Shown here piece after piece: positions 7,311-14,746 of a DNA stretch of 64,000 nucleotides. This DNA comes from Dehalogenimonas sp. GTDB lineage: Bacteria; Chloroflexota; Dehalococcoidia; Dehalococcoidales; Dehalococcoidaceae. The notes beneath the pieces were generated by a model that worked only from the letters and a program-made list of their open reading frames with translations, was not told where the DNA came from and did no database searches. Numbering within the stretch: the first letter of the stretch is position 1; each line of letters begins with the position of its first letter. The position numbers were made by a program, and so were the translations under genes. Where the stretch lies: positions 471,927 to 535,926 of the forward strand of contig CP139473.1 in assembly GCA_050859015.1 (NCBI GenBank). Reading direction: 5' to 3'.

Positions 7311-8165
7311 TTACTTCAAATTCAACGTTGGGATGCCTTGAAAAGGCAATCCCAGTTTCTTTATAAGATCTCCCGCATTTCTGGGCGCATACGCTTTCCA
7401 GTGATTGTTGAAAAACACAAAAGTCTGCTTGGCGGTAGCAGCCAACTTCCTTACCCGACCAGCCAATTCTTCGGCTTCTTCTGGCGAGTACAGATAGCGA
7501 TATCGCGTTTCGTTATTACCGGTCCACCAGTCCGTTGCGTTCCGGCCGTGGAACCTGAAATAGGCGAGCTTGGTGGAAGTAGCCGGCAATTCCCGGGCGA
7601 TAGAGGAGCTAAACTTAGGTTCATCAATCTGAACCCAGGCAGCATTATAGGTTGAAAGGAGGGTGGCTGTAGCCGGATCGTCGCTCCAGCTTTTGTGCCG
7701 CAACTCAATCGCTATCGGATAATCGCCGAATGTCTGGAGAACCGCCTCGAGGGTCTGGCGGCCGAATCCATCGTTCTCGAAGCTGGGTGGAAACTGCGCC
7801 AATACTGCTCCCAGCTTCCCCGCCCGTGAGATCGGCTCGATTCCTTTCAAATACAAGTCAACATCGTCTCGTGAGATGGCCGCTGTTTCGCCGGTAGCCG
7901 CTTCGAACATCTTCGGGTGGGTGAACTTCTGCCACAGCTTGGCAGTAAAAAGGAAATCATCAGGGGTTTTTCTGGCCCAGCTTTCCGCCCAGGCCGGATT
8001 GATCGGAGAATAAAACGACGAGTTGATCTCGACGCAGTTAAAAAACTGGCTGTAATAACCAAGCTCATTTTTAGTCCCGGGCGGGTAGAAGTAGCCGTTC
8101 CAGGTCCCTTCGCCCCGGGGATAGCTCCAACCCGAAGTGCCGATACAGTATTGAGCCATGCACAA
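7311..8165 (-). CDS. DUF72 (YecE/UPF0759) family protein
   Basis: The N-terminal IGTSGWSYPRGEGTWNGYFYP, plus FFNCVEINSSFY and YFRFHGRN, are hallmark DUF72 motifs. Confidence 0.85.
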   Translation of the reverse strand: MCMAQYCIGTSGWSYPRGEGTWNGYFYPPGTKNELGYYSQFFNCVEINSSFYSPINPAWAESWARKTPDDFLFTAKLWQKFTHPKMFEAATGETAAISRDDVDLYLKGIEPISRAGKLGAVLAQFPPSFENDGFGRQTLEAVLQTFGDYPIAIELRHKSWSDDPATATLLSTYNAAWVQIDEPKFSSSIARELPATSTKLAYFRFHGRNATDWWTGNNETRYRYLYSPEEAEELAGRVRKLAATAKQTFVFFNNHWKAYAPRNAGDLIKKLGLPFQGIPTLNLK

Positions 8166-8188: not shown

Positions 8189-11100
8189 CTAATGCCAGTC
8201 CTTTGATGAAGGCGCTTTTTCCAAAGCGGAGAAGGGCCTCACCTCGTTCACCACCACATTGTGGGTGCCTTCACGGCGCGACAGCCTGCCTTTGACCACC
8301 AGGAACGGCGATTTGAACTTATGCTCTTGACGCCCGTAAACCTGGGGGAAGACCATCAGAGGCACGTGGCCGAACTCATCTTCAAGAGTAATAAAGACCA
8401 CTTTACCGCGCGGCCGCTGGCGGCGGATAACCATGCCGGCAGTGGTCACCTCATCGCCATCGCTCAGATGCTCGATATCTTTGCTGGAACTCACCCAGCG
8501 GCTGAACCGGGGTCTCAAAGAGGCCATAATATGACCTGCAGGGAACAGGCCGAGGACGTTGTATTCCTCCTGCATCTTTTCCCACGGGGTGAGCGATGAT
8601 AGTTTCGTCATATCCTGAGCCACAGGAAGAGGCAGGAAGAGTTGGGAGTTGACCGGGCGGTAGCGAAGGCCGATCTCCCATTTGACCTGTCGGCGGTTTG
8701 GCTCCAGTGAATCGAACGCGCCAGCCGCGGCCAATGCCAGAGCCGTCTCCTCGAGTACGCCGCTACGCTCCAAAAAATCACCGACATTTTTAAAAGGCCC
8801 GGATTCGTTTCTGCCCTTAAGGATAGCGCCGGCTGAGGCGGATCCCAGACCGCCGACGTGCAGGAATCCCAGTCGCAGTGCATTGCCTTCGATGACGCTA
8901 ACGTTGGAACTGCGGTTGATATCCGGATTGAGCACGGTCACGCCGTGGCGCCGGGCGTCTTCTTTGAGCGTTTCAAGGTTGTAAAAGCCCATCGGCTGTT
9001 GATTGAAAATGGCGACGAAGAACTCCAGCGGATAGTAGAGTTTCAGCCACGATGCCTGGTAGGCGGTCACGCCAAAGGCGAAGGCATGGGATTCCGGGAA
9101 CATGTACTGGCCGTTGAATTTATCCCAGATGGCCTCGGCGGCAGTCTCGCCGACACCTCGGGCGGCAGCGCCTTCCATGAACTGCTTATGATAGTGGCTG
9201 AGCAATGTCTCGTTATGATGGCGGCCGAAGGCGCGACGGAGCTGATCGGCGGCGAGTGGGGAAAAGCCGGCGACGTCGATGGCCAACTGGTTGACCTGAT
9301 CCTGGAAGAGAATGACGCCATGGGTACGCTCAAGGGAACGTCGTTCAAGATCATGGTCATATCTAATTTTGTTTTTCTTACTTCGCCTGGCGAGATACTC
9401 CTGGACGCCGCCGTTAACGCCGACGCCCGGGCGCACTGCCGCCACCTCGTGGGCCATATCCAGCAGATTCCGAGGACGCAGGCGGGTGATGGTCTGCATC
9501 TGGGCGGCTGATTCTACCTGGAAGATGCCGATGGTATCGCCTTTACCGAGTATGTCATAGACCCTCTGGTCGTCGAAGTCGATGCGGGACATGTCGATGC
9601 GTTGCCCAGTGCGTTTCTTGATCAGTTCGACCGCTTCCTGCATCTGAGACAGGGCGCCGAGGGCCAGGAAGTCGATCTTAACGAAGCCTGCGTCGTCGAT
9701 GCTGTCTTTGTCCCACTGGCAGACATAGCGGCCGTCGATGGCGCCGCGCTGAACTGGCACGATGTCGGTCAATGGATCGGTGGAGATGATCATGCCGCCG
9801 GGGTGCTGCCCCATGTACTTCGGGAAGCCGTCCAACTCAGCGGCAAGTTCGATGAGGTCGCGCCAAACCGGTGAATCTATTTTGTCCCGGAAATGGGGGC
9901 TCTTTTCCATCTGGGCTCCGAGCCGCCGGGCACTGCCCCAATTGACGTGCTTGGAAAGCTGGTCGACCTCCTCCAGCGGCAGTCCCAGTGCCTTGCCCAG
10001 GTCGCGGACAGCGCCCTTGATCTGGTAAGTAGCAATGGTTCCGGCCAGGGCGGCGTTACGCCAGCCCCACTTGCCGTGCGTCCGCAGAATGAGGTCTTCA
10101 CGGATGGAGCGTGGGAAGTCCAGGTCTATGTCCGGCACACAGCCCATGGCATCTTCCGGCAGAAAGCGTTCCAGGGACAGTTTGTACTTGAGCGGGTCGA
10201 TGTGCGACAGGCCGATGAGGTAGCCGATGAGGAGGGCCACAGAGGAGCCGCGGCCGCGGCCGGGCGGGTTCTCCTCAAGGGTCAGCGAAGGGTCGGACAA
10301 CCCCTGGTCGATCATAGCCTCACGCCCCAGGGTGATGACATCGCGGTAGAGGAGTAGGAAACCGGCCAGCTTATGCTTCCTAATCAGCCGGAACTCCTCG
10401 TCCAGGCGTGACTTAACCTCGAGGGTAATAGCGCCGTAGCGCCGCACCGCGGCATCAAGGCACAGTTTTTCCAGGAAGCTATCCGGGGTAAAACCATCCG
10501 GCACCGGGTAGTCCGGGAAGGTGTAGCCGGAATCCTGCGTCAGGTCGAAGCGGCAGCGCTCGGCGATCTTCACGGTGTTGGTCAAGGCGTCGGGGCAACC
10601 TTCGAATATGGCCTCGATCTCGGCTACCGAGCGCATGTAGAACTCGGAGTTGGGCCGCCGCTCCCGGTGACTCCCCTCCAGGCTCTGGCAGGCCTTCACC
10701 GCCACCAGGCAGTCCTGCAGGCGGTGGCGCTCCCGGACATGGTAATGGACGTTGCCGGTGGCGACGACCTGGACGCCGCATTCGCGGGCCAGGGCGACGA
10801 GCGCCTTGTTGCGGGCACGATCGCCGTAGACCTGATTGCTCTGTAACTCGATGAAATAGTTATCGCTGCCGAACCAGCCAAGGTACTGCCGGATGAGATG
10901 GCGAGCCTCTTCGAGCTTTCCACCCTCGACGAGTTGAGAAAGTTCGCCCTTGGGGCATCCGGATAAACAAATCAGCCCTGCCGCATGTTCGCCGATGATC
11001 TCCGGCGGCAGTTCGGGATTGAGCCGGTCGGGAGCTTCGTGGGCGGCGGTGATGAGGCGGCAGAGGTTGCGGTAGCCTTCCCGGTTCTCGGCCAGGAAGG

Positions 11101-11326
11101 TCAGGTGGTAGCCGCCCTTCAGGGTGATCTCGGCTCCAATGATGCCTGGGAATTCCAGCGATTTCGACAGGTGGGCGTAGCGCATGGCGCCGCAGAGATT
11201 GTCGTGGTCGGTGACGGCCAGTGCAGTGTACCCCAGTTCCTTCGAACTGGTAAGCAGTTCCTCCAGCGATGAAGCGCCGTCGTGGAAAGAGTAGTAGCTG
11301 TGGCAGTGAAGTTCAGCGTAAGGCAT
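8189..11326 (-). CDS. dnaE2: Error-prone DNA polymerase III alpha-type subunit DnaE2
   Basis: PHP domain start MPYAELHCHSYYSFHDGAS, a Pol III alpha core and an OB-fold C-terminus. At about 1045 aa it is shorter than a replicative DnaE, and it sits directly downstream of an imuB-like gene. I place the start at the ATG at 11326. The 42-codon extension in the ORF track overlaps the small upstream ORF. Confidence 0.9.
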   Translation of the reverse strand: MPYAELHCHSYYSFHDGASSLEELLTSSKELGYTALAVTDHDNLCGAMRYAHLSKSLEFPGIIGAEITLKGGYHLTFLAENREGYRNLCRLITAAHEAPDRLNPELPPEIIGEHAAGLICLSGCPKGELSQLVEGGKLEEARHLIRQYLGWFGSDNYFIELQSNQVYGDRARNKALVALARECGVQVVATGNVHYHVRERHRLQDCLVAVKACQSLEGSHRERRPNSEFYMRSVAEIEAIFEGCPDALTNTVKIAERCRFDLTQDSGYTFPDYPVPDGFTPDSFLEKLCLDAAVRRYGAITLEVKSRLDEEFRLIRKHKLAGFLLLYRDVITLGREAMIDQGLSDPSLTLEENPPGRGRGSSVALLIGYLIGLSHIDPLKYKLSLERFLPEDAMGCVPDIDLDFPRSIREDLILRTHGKWGWRNAALAGTIATYQIKGAVRDLGKALGLPLEEVDQLSKHVNWGSARRLGAQMEKSPHFRDKIDSPVWRDLIELAAELDGFPKYMGQHPGGMIISTDPLTDIVPVQRGAIDGRYVCQWDKDSIDDAGFVKIDFLALGALSQMQEAVELIKKRTGQRIDMSRIDFDDQRVYDILGKGDTIGIFQVESAAQMQTITRLRPRNLLDMAHEVAAVRPGVGVNGGVQEYLARRSKKNKIRYDHDLERRSLERTHGVILFQDQVNQLAIDVAGFSPLAADQLRRAFGRHHNETLLSHYHKQFMEGAAARGVGETAAEAIWDKFNGQYMFPESHAFAFGVTAYQASWLKLYYPLEFFVAIFNQQPMGFYNLETLKEDARRHGVTVLNPDINRSSNVSVIEGNALRLGFLHVGGLGSASAGAILKGRNESGPFKNVGDFLERSGVLEETALALAAAGAFDSLEPNRRQVKWEIGLRYRPVNSQLFLPLPVAQDMTKLSSLTPWEKMQEEYNVLGLFPAGHIMASLRPRFSRWVSSSKDIEHLSDGDEVTTAGMVIRRQRPRGKVVFITLEDEFGHVPLMVFPQVYGRQEHKFKSPFLVVKGRLSRREGTHNVVVNEVRPFSALEKAPSSKDWH

Positions 11327-11334
11327 TGAATAAC

Positions 11335-11619
11335 CTAATAGCTCTGGTGATACCATTTGCCGTCGACAAGGTCCTTGAAGAGAGTCAGCCGCCGACCGTT
11401 GCCCAGGATGACGGCGTAGTACATCCGCGACAGGGGGCGCGCCCGCCACCACTCATCGTCAAGGCGCCAGACGTCATCGATGACAGCTATAGAAAGACGT
11501 CGACCTAGGGTCACGACCGCCGGTCGGCCGGCGGCGTCTTCATCGACAGCAATGGGTTCGGGCAGGTTTACCGGTTTAAGGGTATCAGCGTGAAGCGTCT
11601 TTCCGGTATCCGTGACCAT
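11335..11619 (-). CDS. Small conserved-looking protein (94 aa) between imuB-like and dnaE2, function unknown
   Basis: The ORF ends 8 nt before the dnaE2 start and overlaps the imuB-like 3' end by 52 nt in another frame. The Trp/Arg-rich sequence (VIDDVWRLDDEWWRARPLSRMYYAVILGNGRRLTLFKDLVDGKWY) does not look like an antisense or frame artefact. Confidence 0.5.
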   Translation of the reverse strand: MVTDTGKTLHADTLKPVNLPEPIAVDEDAAGRPAVVTLGRRLSIAVIDDVWRLDDEWWRARPLSRMYYAVILGNGRRLTLFKDLVDGKWYHQSY

Positions 11620-12746
11620 GGCTCGACCTCTTTGATTTTGAATAATTGCGGCGCGCCCAGTTTTAGTTCCAATTGCTTGATATCGCCGGCCAGTTTCTCA
11701 CCCGATCTGACCTCGGTGAAGATGCTGCTCTGGCGTCCGTCCGGGTGGCCGATGCGGGTGATCTTCATGCCCAGTTCCTCCACGGGACCGGGCTGGGGGC
11801 AAAACTCCATGACCTGGCGGATGCGGGTGAGGGCGGCCTTGATGCTCATTGCGGGCTCTTTAAAGTGGACCGCCTTCTGCCAGTGCTCGGACAGGCTGGT
11901 GTGGCTCCAGAGTTCGACGCAGCGGATGCCGGCGCCGCGGTGGCCGAAGCGGGCGAAGGCGCGGGAAAGGAGCGATTCGATGGCCATGAGCATGATATCC
12001 AGCGACTCCGTGGCTGAGGGCAGGCTGGTACTCTCCTCGATGAGTTCCTCCGACATACGGGGGTAGAGCAGTGTATCGTCGTAACCGGCGGCCAGTTCGC
12101 CGATGCGCTTGCCCTCGGGGCCGAATTGGGCTTCCAGCTTAGAAATTTGAATTTCAGCGACCTTGCCAAGAGTGTGCAGGCCGAAATCGTGGAGTCTCAT
12201 CTTGCTCTTGAGCGACACCGGCAGCAGGTCGCAGGACAGGTCTTTGAAGTAGGCGGCGGCGTCGCCCTGAATTGTTTTATAACCATCTGATTTGCTGTCG
12301 AGGGCGGCAAGATAGGCGGGAAACTTGCCCCCGGCGATGCCCAGGCGGGCCTCGAAGCCATCGGGGAGGGACTTGCGCACCGCAGCAGCAAGGTCGTCAT
12401 CGTTAGGGTAGAGCATCTCCAGGCCGTCGCAGCCGATGTAGATGTCGCCGAGGGCGCTGCCCTCGACGAGGGGGCTGACCTTCTCCAGGGCGTCCAGCAC
12501 GCCGTTGAAAAGGCTCCAGTAGTGCGCCATGTCGGCGTGGAGGAGTTCCATCTCGCCGTGGCGCGAGAGGGCCTGCTGGAGGGGCATGTCTCGCTCGAGG
12601 CCTTTGAGATCAGGGGAGTAGTCCAGAAGCAGCTTCTGAGAGCCAACGGAGTAGGTGACCGCGGCGGGGCGGCCGGCCAGTTCGGGCTTCTTCAGTATCT
12701 CGCACCTCAGAGGGAAGTGCGGCAGGAGTACACACAACAGCTTCAC
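11568..12746 (-). CDS. imuB: ImuB-like catalytically inactive Y-family DNA polymerase
   Basis: Y-family (IMS) architecture whose N-terminus LLCVLLPHFPLRCE lacks the catalytic Asp/Glu found in DinB-type enzymes. Its position directly upstream of dnaE2 is typical of the imuB-dnaE2 mutasome. GTG start with an AGAGGA RBS. Confidence 0.8.
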   Translation of the reverse strand: MKLLCVLLPHFPLRCEILKKPELAGRPAAVTYSVGSQKLLLDYSPDLKGLERDMPLQQALSRHGEMELLHADMAHYWSLFNGVLDALEKVSPLVEGSALGDIYIGCDGLEMLYPNDDDLAAAVRKSLPDGFEARLGIAGGKFPAYLAALDSKSDGYKTIQGDAAAYFKDLSCDLLPVSLKSKMRLHDFGLHTLGKVAEIQISKLEAQFGPEGKRIGELAAGYDDTLLYPRMSEELIEESTSLPSATESLDIMLMAIESLLSRAFARFGHRGAGIRCVELWSHTSLSEHWQKAVHFKEPAMSIKAALTRIRQVMEFCPQPGPVEELGMKITRIGHPDGRQSSIFTEVRSGEKLAGDIKQLELKLGAPQLFKIKEVEPWSRIPERRFTLIPLNR

Positions 12747-12886
12747 ATCATCCTCTAATATTGTTTAATTGTTATTCATATGCATGAATCGACTGGAACG
12801 ACTCTATTTTGACGTTCATTTTTCGTCGAAAGGCAAAAACGAAAATGAAACAAATCCCGTTATAATCACTTTGAACCCTCCCCTGG

Positions 12887-12973
12887 CCCCTTCCCTCCGG
12901 CTCGTCCCTCGCCGCGGGAAGGGGAAAATGTTTTCAAGAGGTTTTGGCTCGCAGCCCGCTTGCCAAAACCTCT
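12887..12973. repeat. Two adjacent REP-like hairpins in the imuB leader
   Basis: CCCCTTCCC (12887-12895) pairs with GGGAAGGGG (12916-12924). AGAGGTTTTGGC (12937-12948) pairs with GCCAAAACCTCT (12962-12973) around a 13-nt loop. Confidence 0.5.
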
Positions 12974-13033
12974 GACCGGGGCACCACTCCACCGAAAAGG
13001 CTCTGTCCAAGTTTCCTTTGACCTTAACATTTT

Positions 13034-13096
13034 AGAACGAGGGTGTTCTAACTCAGGTGTTCTAATATTATAGTAGAACCATTGTTCATTTGTCAA
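13034..13096 (-). promoter_or_regulatory. Sigma-70-type promoter with a LexA (Cheo-type GAAC-N4-GTTC) box in its spacer, directed toward imuB-dnaE2
   Basis: On the minus strand: TTGACA (13096-13091), an 18-nt spacer, then TATAAT (13072-13067). The spacer contains GAACAATGGTTC (13087-13076). A second palindrome, AGAACACCCTCGTTCT (13049-13034, GAAC-N6-GTTC), lies just downstream of the predicted start site. Confidence 0.6.
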
Positions 13097-13208
13097 GGGG
13101 GGAGACGTTTGTGAGATAGTGAGAACCGTCGCATAATTATTCAAGGGTACGGTGCAACCGGGCACCTAGATTCTTCACTTCGTTCAGAATGACAAAAGAG
13201 GAGAATGC

Positions 13209-14033
13209 TTGAAAAATAAATATGAACTGATCGTCATCGACATGGACGGGACCATCGTCGATGCTCATGGCAATATCTCTAACGCTGATAAAATCTCCAT
13301 CGCCGAAGCTCGAACCCTGGGTATCAGGGTTGCCCTTTCCACGGGAAGGGTCGTCGATGCGTGTCACAAATACATCGCTGAGCTGGGGCTTGACGGAGTC
13401 CACATCTTTTTTGACGGCGCCCTGGTATATGATCCGAGCCGCAAGGACACGATCTACTCCCAACCGATAAAAACCGAAACCCTGAAAGAAGCCGTCGCCT
13501 TCGCTCGCCAGAACAACATCTATCTCGAGCTTTACGCCATCGACCGTTATTTTGTCGAAGAGATCAACTGGGCGGACAAAATACACCGGGAGTTTTTCGG
13601 GCTGCACAGCACGTTAGCCAATTTCGATGACATCGCCGGCAAGGAAACCATCATAAAATGTGAATTGATGGTTCACAACGACGGAGAGGAAGCCAAATAT
13701 CAACGTTTCATGGAGCATTTTCAGGGGCAATTACGAGGCTCGATTGCGCGGACGCCGGCATACCCAGATGTCCGTTTCGTGAACGTTGTCGATCCGAGAG
13801 TTTCCAAGGGGTCAGCCCTCGAAAAGCTGGCAGAGCATTTTGATATCGATCTGGACAAGGTGATGGCGATCGGGGACGGCACCAATGATATACCGCTCCT
13901 CGAAAAGGCAGGCCTAAAGATCGCTATGGGCAACGCCCGGGATGAACTGAAGAGCATCGCGGACTACGTTACCAAGCCGGTGGATGAGTCCGGCGTGGCG
14001 GCGGCGATAGATAAATTCATACTGGGCGGGTGA
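13209..14033 (+). CDS. Cof-type HAD-IIB phosphatase
   Basis: LIVIDMDGTIVD (motif I DxDGT), STGR, and the C-terminal GDGTNDIPLL motif. TTG start with an AGGAG RBS about 8 nt upstream. Confidence 0.9.
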   Translation: MKNKYELIVIDMDGTIVDAHGNISNADKISIAEARTLGIRVALSTGRVVDACHKYIAELGLDGVHIFFDGALVYDPSRKDTIYSQPIKTETLKEAVAFARQNNIYLELYAIDRYFVEEINWADKIHREFFGLHSTLANFDDIAGKETIIKCELMVHNDGEEAKYQRFMEHFQGQLRGSIARTPAYPDVRFVNVVDPRVSKGSALEKLAEHFDIDLDKVMAIGDGTNDIPLLEKAGLKIAMGNARDELKSIADYVTKPVDESGVAAAIDKFILGG

Positions 14034-14080
14034 AACCGGGCGAGGTCGCCTCGCCCTACGATGGAATAGACGGAGGGCAC

Positions 14081-14290
14081 ATGAAATTTCGGATAGTCGT
14101 CGAAAAGGACCCTGAAACGAAAGAATTTTCGGCCTACTGCCCCGAACTGCCTGGTTGCAACAGTTGCGGGATGACCGAAGAAGAGGCGGTCGCCAATGCC
14201 ACCGAGGCCATCAAGTTGTACCTTGAGCCATCGGATATCAGCAAGACATGCACCGGCAAAGTCTGCGAGGTCGAGGTGAACCTGGATTGA
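14081..14290 (+). CDS. hicB: HicB-family antitoxin (UPF0150 fold)
   Basis: MKFRIVVEKDPETKEFSAYCPELPGCNSCGMTEEEAVANATEAIKLYLE is a textbook HicB N-terminal domain. ATG at 14081 with a GGAGGG RBS. Confidence 0.85.
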   Translation: MKFRIVVEKDPETKEFSAYCPELPGCNSCGMTEEEAVANATEAIKLYLEPSDISKTCTGKVCEVEVNLD

Positions 14291-14517
14291 CTTCTCACAT
14301 CCCCCACGAGACGGCTGAAACGGTGGGCAGGGTCCTCGAGCATCACGGTTTTGTTCTTATTGCTCAACGCGGCAGCCATCAGAAGTGGCGATCCTGCGTG
14401 ATTTCCAAAGAATGCAGGCAGGTGATAGTGCCTTTTCACCAGGGCCATGATCTGCCCACGGGCACGATGAAAAGCATCATCGAAGGCAGCGGATTGCCGC
14501 CGGCAGTGTTTGGTTAA
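14287..14517 (+). CDS. hicA: HicA-family mRNA interferase toxin
   Basis: VLEHHGFVLIAQRGSHQKW...VPFHQGHDLPTGTMKSIIEGSGL matches the HicA dsRBD-like motif with its catalytic His. The TTG start at 14287 overlaps the hicB stop. Confidence 0.8.
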   Translation: MTSHIPHETAETVGRVLEHHGFVLIAQRGSHQKWRSCVISKECRQVIVPFHQGHDLPTGTMKSIIEGSGLPPAVFG

Positions 14518-14536
14518 TTGATCGTGCGGGCGGATA

Positions 14537-14746
14537 TCAGGAGTTGGCTTCCTCGAAAAGCTGCCAGGCTAAACGTTCGACGTCTTCTCTTTTGAATCTC
14601 CGGTCCCCCCGGTTAGAGATTCGCCAGTATTCGATTTTGCCCTGGTCGCCCCACCGCCTCAGCGTGCTTTTGGAAACGCTGAGGAGTTGACTGGCCGTGC
14701 GAACGTTGAGCAGGTGGCCTTCAGGGATTGTTTGTACAGCGCTCAT
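14537..14746 (-). CDS. MerR/excisionase-family helix-turn-helix DNA-binding protein
   Basis: LLNVRTASQLLSVSKSTLRRWGDQGKIEYWRISNRGDRRFKREDVERL is an HTH_17/Xis-type motif. Confidence 0.75.
   Translation of the reverse strand: MSAVQTIPEGHLLNVRTASQLLSVSKSTLRRWGDQGKIEYWRISNRGDRRFKREDVERLAWQLFEEANS

Follow-up and report, generated by a model that had tools for sequence, protein, structure and literature searches.

A 94-codon gene between imuY and dnaE2 of Dehalogenimonas probably encodes the free-standing C-terminal domain of a split ImuB

What is the small open reading frame (ORF) that lies between a Y-family polymerase gene and dnaE2 in the genome of Dehalogenimonas sp.? The question was raised by an earlier note on a stretch of 64,000 nucleotides of contig CP139473.1 (the window hereafter), which described a mutasome cassette composed of a short imuB-like gene, a 94-codon ORF and dnaE2, and suggested that the ORF could be either a detached ImuB C-terminal interaction module or a new accessory subunit of the translesion complex. 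The geometry given there was confirmed: the ORF encodes 94 aa, overlaps the end of the Y-family gene by 52 nt in another frame, and stops 8 nt ahead of the dnaE2 ATG at position 11326, both genes being on the same strand. The motif cited in that note, DDVWRLDDEWWRARPLSRMYYAVILGNGRRLTLFKDLVDGKWY, was found in the 94-aa ORF. The three genes of the cassette, under the names that we use below, are as follows.

11335..11619, minus strand: imuB-C, the ORF under study, 94 aa, with its ATG at 11619 and its TAG at 11337-11335.
11568..12746, minus strand: imuY (iPolY), a 392-aa Y-family polymerase homologue, the N-terminal "half" of the split ImuB (Pfam IMS, impB/mucB/samB, E 1.2e-9).
8189..11326, minus strand: dnaE2, a 1045-aa error-prone C-family polymerase (Pfam PHP, pol III alpha, fingers, HhH and OB domains).

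The 94-aa protein belongs to a large family. A database search recovered 50 near-full-length homologues, nearly all of them 91-100 aa long and sharing 44-94% identity with the query, and they included proteins from D. etheniformans (89%), D. formicexedens (87%) and Dehalogenimonas sp. 4OHTPN (79%). A profile search against 1.84 billion representative proteins yielded 1,656 clusters at E<=1e-3, 670 of them at E<=1e-10, and the best 150 of these 1,656 clusters were mostly stand-alone proteins of about 95 aa (90-100 aa). A genome scan added 593 confirmed genomic relatives. Because of these 50 homologues, 1,656 clusters and 593 genomic relatives, the ORF is a real conserved gene, far beyond what chance would produce. 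The search proposed in the earlier note, which left open whether homologues would be C-terminal domains of long ImuB proteins or separate genes, thus uncovered a conserved family of chiefly separate genes, located beside dnaE2 in the related loci. The description of the ORF as unannotated was right for its function, since the orthologues in the three genomes named above are labelled "hypothetical protein" in GenBank and since the 94-aa protein and 26 relatives had no match in Pfam or NCBIfam, even at E<=10, but gene callers do predict the gene.

The identity of the domain came from the comparison with ImuB itself. The ImuB-C superfamily was defined by Aravind et al. (Aravind, Anand & Iyer, 2013; PMC3765255). 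We aligned into a profile the C-terminal tails of 16 ImuB1/ImuB2 proteins taken from Table S4 of PMC6511836 and compared it with the profile of the imuB-C family using hhalign, which aligned 78 columns (residues 15-93) with a probability of 96.9% and an E-value of 1.7e-10. Both profiles exhibited the same pattern, with (R/K)P..L..P.P at the start, ERI/WRLD followed by EWW(R/D), then R.YY.V, G.R and a C-terminal W, and an imuB-C tryptophan was aligned with the conserved tryptophan of the canonical ImuB tails. The invariant core of imuB-C consisted of W51-R-x-D-D-E-W-W-R59 together with N18, P20, P33, R65, Y67, G75 and W89; across alignments of 26-49 homologues, W89 was invariant and R52, R59 and R65 were invariant or nearly so. 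Because of this profile-profile match to canonical ImuB tails, the 94-aa protein is best read as a stand-alone ImuB-C, i.e., the detached C-terminal domain of ImuB, and the first of the two suggestions of the earlier note is borne out as far as the identity of the domain is concerned.

The Pfam family DUF6504 (PF20114) matched the tail of the Agrobacterium ImuB (E 1.4e-6), missed the other three of the four canonical tails tested, and was undetected at E<=10 in imuB-C and its 26 close relatives. DUF6504 thus models the same domain superfamily as ImuB-C while being too narrow for the imuB-C clade, and because it misses imuB-C, the membership of the latter in the superfamily rests on the profile-profile comparison. 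A 1,611-aa protein (P0169) with 14 apparent "ImuB-C" stretches was discarded as a spurious match, being a secreted Cys-rich repeat protein whose W/K-rich repeats drive the similarity.

The AlphaFold2 model of imuB-C, built with 49 homologues, was all-beta (mean pLDDT 84.7), with six strands in residues 24-92 and no long helix; the N-terminal arm (residues 1-20) was predicted with low confidence, yet it is conserved in sequence. A Foldseek search of the PDB with this model retrieved nothing at E<=0.001 (best TM-score about 0.35), and a sequence search of the PDB with the family profile only gave chance matches (Hcp1, E 1.3; dynein, E 3.5). The SH3-like fold proposed by Aravind et al. was thus unsupported by the Foldseek search, whereas an all-beta model devoid of a fold match in the PDB agrees with the description of ImuB-C as a beta-barrel of novel fold (PMC12926913).

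We next considered the gene upstream. The 392-aa product of imuY is short for an ImuB, and what it lacks in comparison with ImuB is the portion represented by imuB-C. Two segments close to its C-terminus are needed for what follows.

11631..11714, minus strand: putative RecA-N-terminus-like (RecA-NT) motif of ImuY, residues 345-372, EVRSGEKLAGDIKQLELKLGAPQLFKIK, orthologous to a published D. lykanthroporepellens string.
11595..11624, minus strand: invariant ImuY tail EPWSRIPERR, residues 375-384, each position being conserved in 66-67 of 67 sequences.

In a phmmer alignment of ImuY with E. coli Pol IV, the S-L-D-E catalytic motif faced A-L-G-D, and the catalytic residues D8, D103 and E104 of Pol IV corresponded to L7, G100 and D101 of ImuY, L7 being assigned via ungapped extension. 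At the positions of D103 and E104, the ImuY family displayed G in 63 of 67 sequences, followed by C, T, D or Q (Cys in most of them), the consensus over the three catalytic positions being L / G / C. Because the catalytic carboxylates are replaced, we read ImuY as an inactive Y-family homologue. It is 63% identical to the Y-family protein of D. lykanthroporepellens BL-DC-9, whose organism and C-terminal sequence match an "other_inactive" iPolY entry in Table S4 of PMC6511836. Residues 345-372 of ImuY are orthologous to the RecA-NT-like string given there for D. lykanthroporepellens, EVRSSDKLESDIQQLELRMGTPPLFRVE, and are conserved in 67 relatives; the motif would thereby be expected to bind RecA. 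A "PER" motif related to that of the ImuY tail was seen in canonical ImuB tails in the same table.

We then considered the surroundings of imuB-C, using the 80 best related loci as a synteny sample. A Y-family homologue was located upstream of imuB-C in 78/80 loci, and the order imuY, imuB-C, dnaE2 was recovered in 73/80; in most of the seven remaining loci, imuB-C lies at the very end of the contig. The earlier note had named the loss of the ORF beside conserved flanking genes as a result that would speak against it, and the ORF turned out to be conserved together with its flanking genes across these loci. The dnaE2 product scored 870.7 bits against the NCBIfam model of error-prone DNA polymerases (PRK05672), under its cut-off of 939, a score that would fit a divergent DnaE2 group. 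A DUF72 gene is a recurrent neighbour of the cassette, which we did not find described in the accessible parts of the literature on this cassette.

No imuA-like gene was present in the operon, the flanks of which are, upstream of imuY, the promoter region and a divergent HAD hydrolase gene and, downstream, the DUF72 gene. The claim of the earlier note that the cassette contains neither imuA nor imuA' therefore holds for the operon, whereas its remark that the ORF occupies the slot normally taken by ImuA-type partners does not, since the gene strings with ImuA in Table S4 of PMC6511836 place ImuA upstream of ImuB. The lack of imuA in the operon and the lack of Pfam and NCBIfam matches would both be expected if the 94-aa protein had no relation to ImuB and were a new accessory subunit taking over the function of ImuA or ImuA'. 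We give this reading almost no credence: the profile-profile homology to ImuB-C is significant, nothing in the all-beta model resembles RecA, and the putative RecA-NT motif of ImuY points to RecA itself as the substitute for ImuA (PMC6511836). ImuA-less variants in which a Y-family polymerase lacking activity is accompanied by a stand-alone ImuB-C and by DnaE2, and in which RecA presumably takes the place of ImuA, were indeed described by Timinskas & Venclovas (2019; PMC6511836), according to whom imuA is missing genome-wide in systems of this type. The second suggestion of the earlier note, a new accessory subunit, is thus superseded, both the stand-alone ImuB-C and the same type of operon having already been published (PMC3765255; Table S4 of PMC6511836; PMC12926913).

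Is the separation of imuY and imuB-C genuine? The C-terminal domain that ImuY lacks is encoded by the small ORF in another frame, which is what a 1-nt indel would yield, so that a full-length imuB could have been split by a frameshift introduced in sequencing or assembly, or by a recent mutation turning it into a pseudogene. We examined the junction in the 77 loci (of the 80) in which both gene ends are visible. The main elements of this junction in the window are the following.

11568..11619, minus strand: dual-coding overlap of 52 nt, made up of the last 17 imuY codons and the first 17 imuB-C codons, imuB-C being in the -1 frame.
11626..11633, minus strand: Shine-Dalgarno sequence AAAGAGGT of imuB-C, located inside the coding region of imuY, with 6 nt separating it from the ATG.

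The overlap was 52 nt long in 75/77 loci and 49 nt long in the two others, and the relative frame was identical in all 77. The same split, with the 52-nt overlap and the same frame, was thus present in 75/77 independent assemblies, including complete genomes, and overlap and frame were kept even in relatives in which ImuY identity is just 32-38%. The lengths of both products, 392 and 94 aa, are also conserved, and the ImuY tail beyond the imuB-C start is invariant, unlike a dead frame. Because the overlap and the frame are conserved across these loci, the assembly frameshift that the earlier note had kept in reserve as a trivial explanation is excluded, and an artefactual or degenerative origin of the split is in our opinion extremely improbable. 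The single-chain architecture of canonical ImuB is absent here: in 77/77 loci the two parts are separate ORFs that do not share a frame and that have a stop or start of their own.

The junction itself seems to be organised for the independent translation of imuB-C. The start codon of imuB-C is at the same position in every one of the 77 loci (ATG, GTG and, once, TTG) and is supplied by the Pro-Trp codons of the ImuY tail (CC[A/G/T]-TGG, i.e., CCN-TGG). In these 77 loci, AAGGAGGT is conserved 6-8 nt before the start (consensus aaGGAgGT). The conservation of third codon positions of imuY was 0.72 within the overlap versus 0.59 outside, and that of imuB-C was 0.89 within versus 0.60 outside; such a raised wobble conservation in both frames is what genuine dual coding predicts. 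The two halves could also be joined by programmed -1 frameshifting within the 52-nt overlap, producing an ImuY-ImuB-C fusion (a full-length ImuB-like protein) instead of, or besides, a free 94-aa protein. Such a fusion would restore the domain arrangement of canonical ImuB, and imuB-C does lie in the -1 frame of imuY, with a frame fixed in 77/77 loci and a conserved overlap length. Against it, a canonical X_XXY_YYZ slippery heptamer was present in just one of the 77 loci, the start codon with its upstream AAGGAGGT is conserved in all of them, and many loci exhibit an in-frame stop 6-21 nt upstream of the imuB-C start, so that a shift site could hardly be accommodated outside the overlap. Since the Shine-Dalgarno sequence and the start codon are conserved and slippery heptamers are nearly absent, we favour an independent translation of imuB-C that uses a ribosome-binding site of its own, with both signals embedded in the codons of the imuY tail, and we regard the fusion as highly unlikely.

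The tail of ImuY (EVEPWSRIPERR) accordingly has several roles at the nucleotide level: its codons also contain the Shine-Dalgarno sequence and the CCN-TGG start of imuB-C, and they specify the conserved N-terminal arm of that protein, MVxDTGKTL. We speculate that the conserved 52-nt junction may have a function of its own instead of being a chance result of the split. It could couple the translation of the two halves in cis, setting the stoichiometry of the two proteins or promoting their co-translational assembly, and the two co-encoded peptides could also form a non-covalent tether replacing the ImuB linker; this proposal is tentative, and we consider it less likely than not. A junction of this kind, coding in two frames and containing the Shine-Dalgarno sequence and the start codon of imuB-C, was not found described in those parts of the literature on this cassette that were accessible.

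The control of the cassette was deduced from the region upstream of imuY, which contains the following elements.

13067..13096, minus strand: sigma-70-type promoter, TTGACA-18 nt-TATAAT (12/12 matches), driving the cassette.
13076..13087, no strand assigned: predicted LexA operator, a Cheo-type SOS box GAACAATGGTTC = GAAC-N4-GTTC, within the promoter spacer.
12747..13066, minus strand: 5' leader of about 320 nt from the SOS promoter to the imuY start, partly conserved with D. etheniformans (L081).

We take the GAAC-N4-GTTC box to be the Gram-positive-type LexA operator used by Dehalococcoides, as reportedly described by Fernandez de Henestrosa et al. (2002, J Bacteriol). No GAAC-N4-GTTC other than the box at 13076..13087 occurs in the 64-kb window, and the same box was recovered at <=450 nt upstream of imuY in 54/59 related loci, to be compared with a background of 0.05 sites per 460 nt. 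The TTGACA...TATAAT architecture was also observed upstream of imuY in most related loci. The position of the LexA box within the promoter predicts induction by DNA damage, i.e., that the cassette is under SOS (LexA) control. A tblastn search with the LexA of Dehalogenimonas sp. TCA1 for lexA or a remnant of it, in the 64-kb window and in the 320-nt leader, gave nothing better than E 2.9; in TCA1, a 211-aa ORF directly precedes the cassette, which we read as a putative lexA. The distance from the box to the imuY start is 27-70 nt in most relatives, and the leader of about 320 nt is thus atypical for the family. A 54-codon ORF within it had no Pfam match, and the leader also contains additional GAAC half-sites. 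A long leader in this species group was not found described in the literature on the cassette, as far as its accessible sections go. An Rfam scan of positions 11300-13300 yielded one hit on the opposite strand, ar7, which was taken as a chance match because its 31.6 bits fall short of the gathering score of 60.

Taken together, these data make it very probable that the ORF is imuB-C, encoding the free-standing C-terminal beta-barrel of ImuB, which together with ImuY (dead, with a putative RecA-NT-like motif) and DnaE2 forms the published "split ImuB" mutasome without ImuA. The way in which this module may work can be sketched from the literature on the canonical ImuA'-ImuB-DnaE2 system, i.e., AlphaFold models (PMC12926913) and genetics in mycobacteria and Deinococcus. 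Cleavage of LexA would lead to the co-expression of the three proteins. The ImuB-C barrel would dock on the PHP domain of DnaE2, while ImuY would contact DnaE2 via its thumb and recruit RecA via the RecA-NT motif, in place of ImuA; the resulting complex would let DnaE2 perform error-prone lesion bypass. We ourselves would add that the N-terminal arm of ImuB-C (residues 1-20) and/or the ImuY tail EPWSRIPERR may re-join the two halves non-covalently.

The role of the barrel in this scheme follows the AlphaFold models of the M. tuberculosis mutasome, in which ImuB-C is set against the PHP domain of DnaE2 (the main contact) and against ImuA (PMC12926913). Aravind et al. (2013) had on the contrary viewed ImuB-C as primarily a DNA-damage sensor or DNA-binding module guiding repair enzymes to lesions, rather than a DnaE2 adaptor, and stand-alone imuB-C genes do also occur beside those for Pol IV, UmuC, Ku/ligase and the SplB photolyase without dnaE2 (PMC3765255). 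The conserved Arg and Trp residues of the protein studied here (W51, R52, W57, W58, R59, R65 and W89) could likewise contact nucleic acid. Besides the M. tuberculosis models, what argues against this role as the primary one is the tight linkage of imuB-C to dnaE2 in this clade, the conserved acidic DDE patch beside the Trp residues and the lack of fold similarity to known DNA-binding barrels; we thus consider it unlikely, though less so than the frameshift fusion, the artefactual split or the unrelated subunit, and the two roles are not mutually exclusive.

The reading of the ORF as part of a split ImuB mutasome has direct consequences for annotation. The name imuB-C can be given with confidence to this gene and to some 1,650 related clusters that are labelled "hypothetical protein" and missed by Pfam and NCBIfam, and the "DNA polymerase IV" label of the neighbouring gene can be changed to imuY/iPolY (inactive). 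It also means that organohalide-respiring Dehalogenimonas carry an error-prone polymerase module that is predicted to be SOS-controlled. A naturally separate ImuB-C finally offers a convenient handle for dissecting the role of this domain.

The feature itself is already known and has been published for the same genus: the locus of Dehalogenimonas lykanthroporepellens BL-DC-9 is given as "LexA->iPolY->ImuB-C->DnaE2" (ADJ25742-ADJ25745) in Table S4 of PMC6511836. The 52-nt dual-coding junction, the long leader and the recurrent DUF72 neighbour are minor details that the accessible parts of the cassette literature were not found to contain. The closest known system is accordingly the iPolY-ImuB-C-DnaE2 cassette of Kyrpidia tusciae, Deinococcus deserti/ficus and D. 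lykanthroporepellens (PMC6511836; PMC8072749; PMC12926913), which has the same gene order as the window. In both, an inactive Y-family protein with a RecA-NT motif (putative in our case) is accompanied by dnaE2 and by an ImuB-C of about 80-95 aa, with no imuA in the operon and with LexA control (predicted in our case), and the ImuY tail motifs match the strings published for D. lykanthroporepellens (Table S4 of PMC6511836). In Deinococcus, the operon was named lexA-imuY-imuB-C-dnaE2, its induction is under the control of RecA and LexA, and UV-induced mutagenesis requires imuY and dnaE2 (PMC8072749). The cassette studied here differs from the published one in that the operon does not begin with lexA, which is common but not universal in operons of this type (PMC6511836), and in that a leader of about 320 nt separates the SOS promoter from imuY.

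A second system sharing a stand-alone ImuB-C beside a Y-family gene under SOS control comprises the lexA-imuB-C-polY operons of the Geobacter type and the ImuB-C associated with YqjH-type polymerases (PMC6511836). In the Geobacter-type operons the Y-family polymerase is active and dnaE2 is absent (PMC6511836), whereas the Y-family protein is dead here and dnaE2 would supply the catalysis.

The canonical ImuA(ImuA')-ImuB-DnaE2 mutasome of Caulobacter, Pseudomonas, Mycobacterium and Myxococcus has in common with the Dehalogenimonas cassette a dead Y-family scaffold, the RecA-NT motif (putative here), the ImuB-C barrel, DnaE2 and damage-inducible expression (predicted here). It differs in that ImuB is one polypeptide of about 450-550 aa there and is encoded by two genes here, and in that ImuA is present there and absent from the operon here, with RecA as its presumed substitute; the DnaE2 studied here moreover scores under the NCBIfam cut-off. 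iPolY and ImuB-C have been grouped as a "split ImuB" associated with the DnaE2X group (NAR 2026; PMC12926913), and in the same work this split form is regarded as the closest variant of the canonical mutasome and as a possible evolutionary precursor of ImuA-ImuB-DnaE2.

The boundary between the iPolY gene imuY and imuB-C in the window was found to be a strictly conserved dual-coding junction, which was also recovered in the 80 best related genomic loci (L001-L080). The features of the cassette and its surroundings considered here are the following:

11568-11633, minus strand: dual-coding imuY/imuB-C junction
7311-8165, minus strand: DUF72 (PF01904) gene, 23 nt downstream of dnaE2 and on the same strand
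12747-13066, minus strand: leader of about 320 nt, from the SOS promoter to the imuY start
13209-14033, plus strand: Cof-type HAD hydrolase gene, adjoining the cassette and divergent from it

When the related loci were compared, the imuY/imuB-C overlap measured 52 nt in nearly all cases (75 of 77). The ImuY tail has an invariant Pro-Trp pair whose codons supply the imuB-C start codon; AAGGAGGT precedes this start at 6-8 nt. Within the overlap, wobble conservation was higher in the imuY and imuB-C frames alike. We found no mention of this junction in the publications consulted on this cassette type.

The ImuB-C family is effectively unannotated in databases, although it has been described since 2013 (PMC3765255). 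Of four canonical ImuB tails examined, the Pfam model of the ImuB-C domain, PF20114 (DUF6504), matched only one, and it recognised none of 26 proteins from the stand-alone ImuB-C clade. Fourteen stretches of P0169, a secreted Cys-rich repeat protein of 1611 aa, matched the ImuB-C profile with an overall E-value of 4.6e-21. As its repeats (GDKIWKRAANMWKT.DG..TYCSVKC) look unrelated, we regard the match as compositional or spurious; it stands as a warning for profile searches using the W-rich ImuB-C motif. In some ImuB-C homologues, namely P0189 (304 aa), P0056 (192 aa) and P0049 (156 aa), long insertions separate the N-terminal arm (PVNLP motif) from the beta-barrel, and that of P0189, of about 170 residues, looks like a separate globular domain.

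The usual gap of about 9 nt between imuB-C and dnaE2 widens to 1.2-2.6 kb in L012, L037, L048, L065, L067 and L069, where at least one extra gene thus appears to have been inserted in the cassette. Against NCBIfam PRK05672 ("error-prone DNA polymerase"), whose curated cut-off is 939 bits, the DnaE2 of the window (8189-11326, minus strand) scored lower, at 870.7 bits. This low score fits the divergent "DnaE2X" group tied to split-ImuB systems (2026 NAR paper, PMC12926913). Automatic annotation may therefore give the protein no more specific name than "DNA polymerase III subunit alpha".

In D. etheniformans (L081), the DUF72 gene likewise follows dnaE2 on the same strand, again after 23 nt. Twelve related loci (L002, L005, L013, L015, L032, L045, L052, L054, L061, L069, L070 and L075) have a DUF72 gene (59-71% identical) on the other strand, upstream of imuY; it is near the upstream region of the cassette in the two whose coordinates were checked (L013 and L015). 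Its product may be an unrecognised SOS-linked partner.

Small ORFs were also observed beyond the HAD hydrolase gene (region 13209-14746); their counterparts among the syntenic gene calls of D. etheniformans are a HicB-like antitoxin, a HicA toxin and a MerR/HTH_17 protein.

The imuY leader contains additional AGAAC half-sites (TAGAACACCTGAGTTAGAACACCCTCGTTCTA), a 9-bp hairpin with arms GGTTTTGGC...GCCAAAACC and a 54-codon ORF that gave no Pfam match. An Rfam ar7 match on the opposite strand (12869-12977) was sub-threshold (31.6 bits versus 60). Conservation of the leader with D. etheniformans was partial, that of the window being about 100 nt longer. The promoter lies about 320 nt from imuY in the window, in contrast to 27-70 nt in most relatives.
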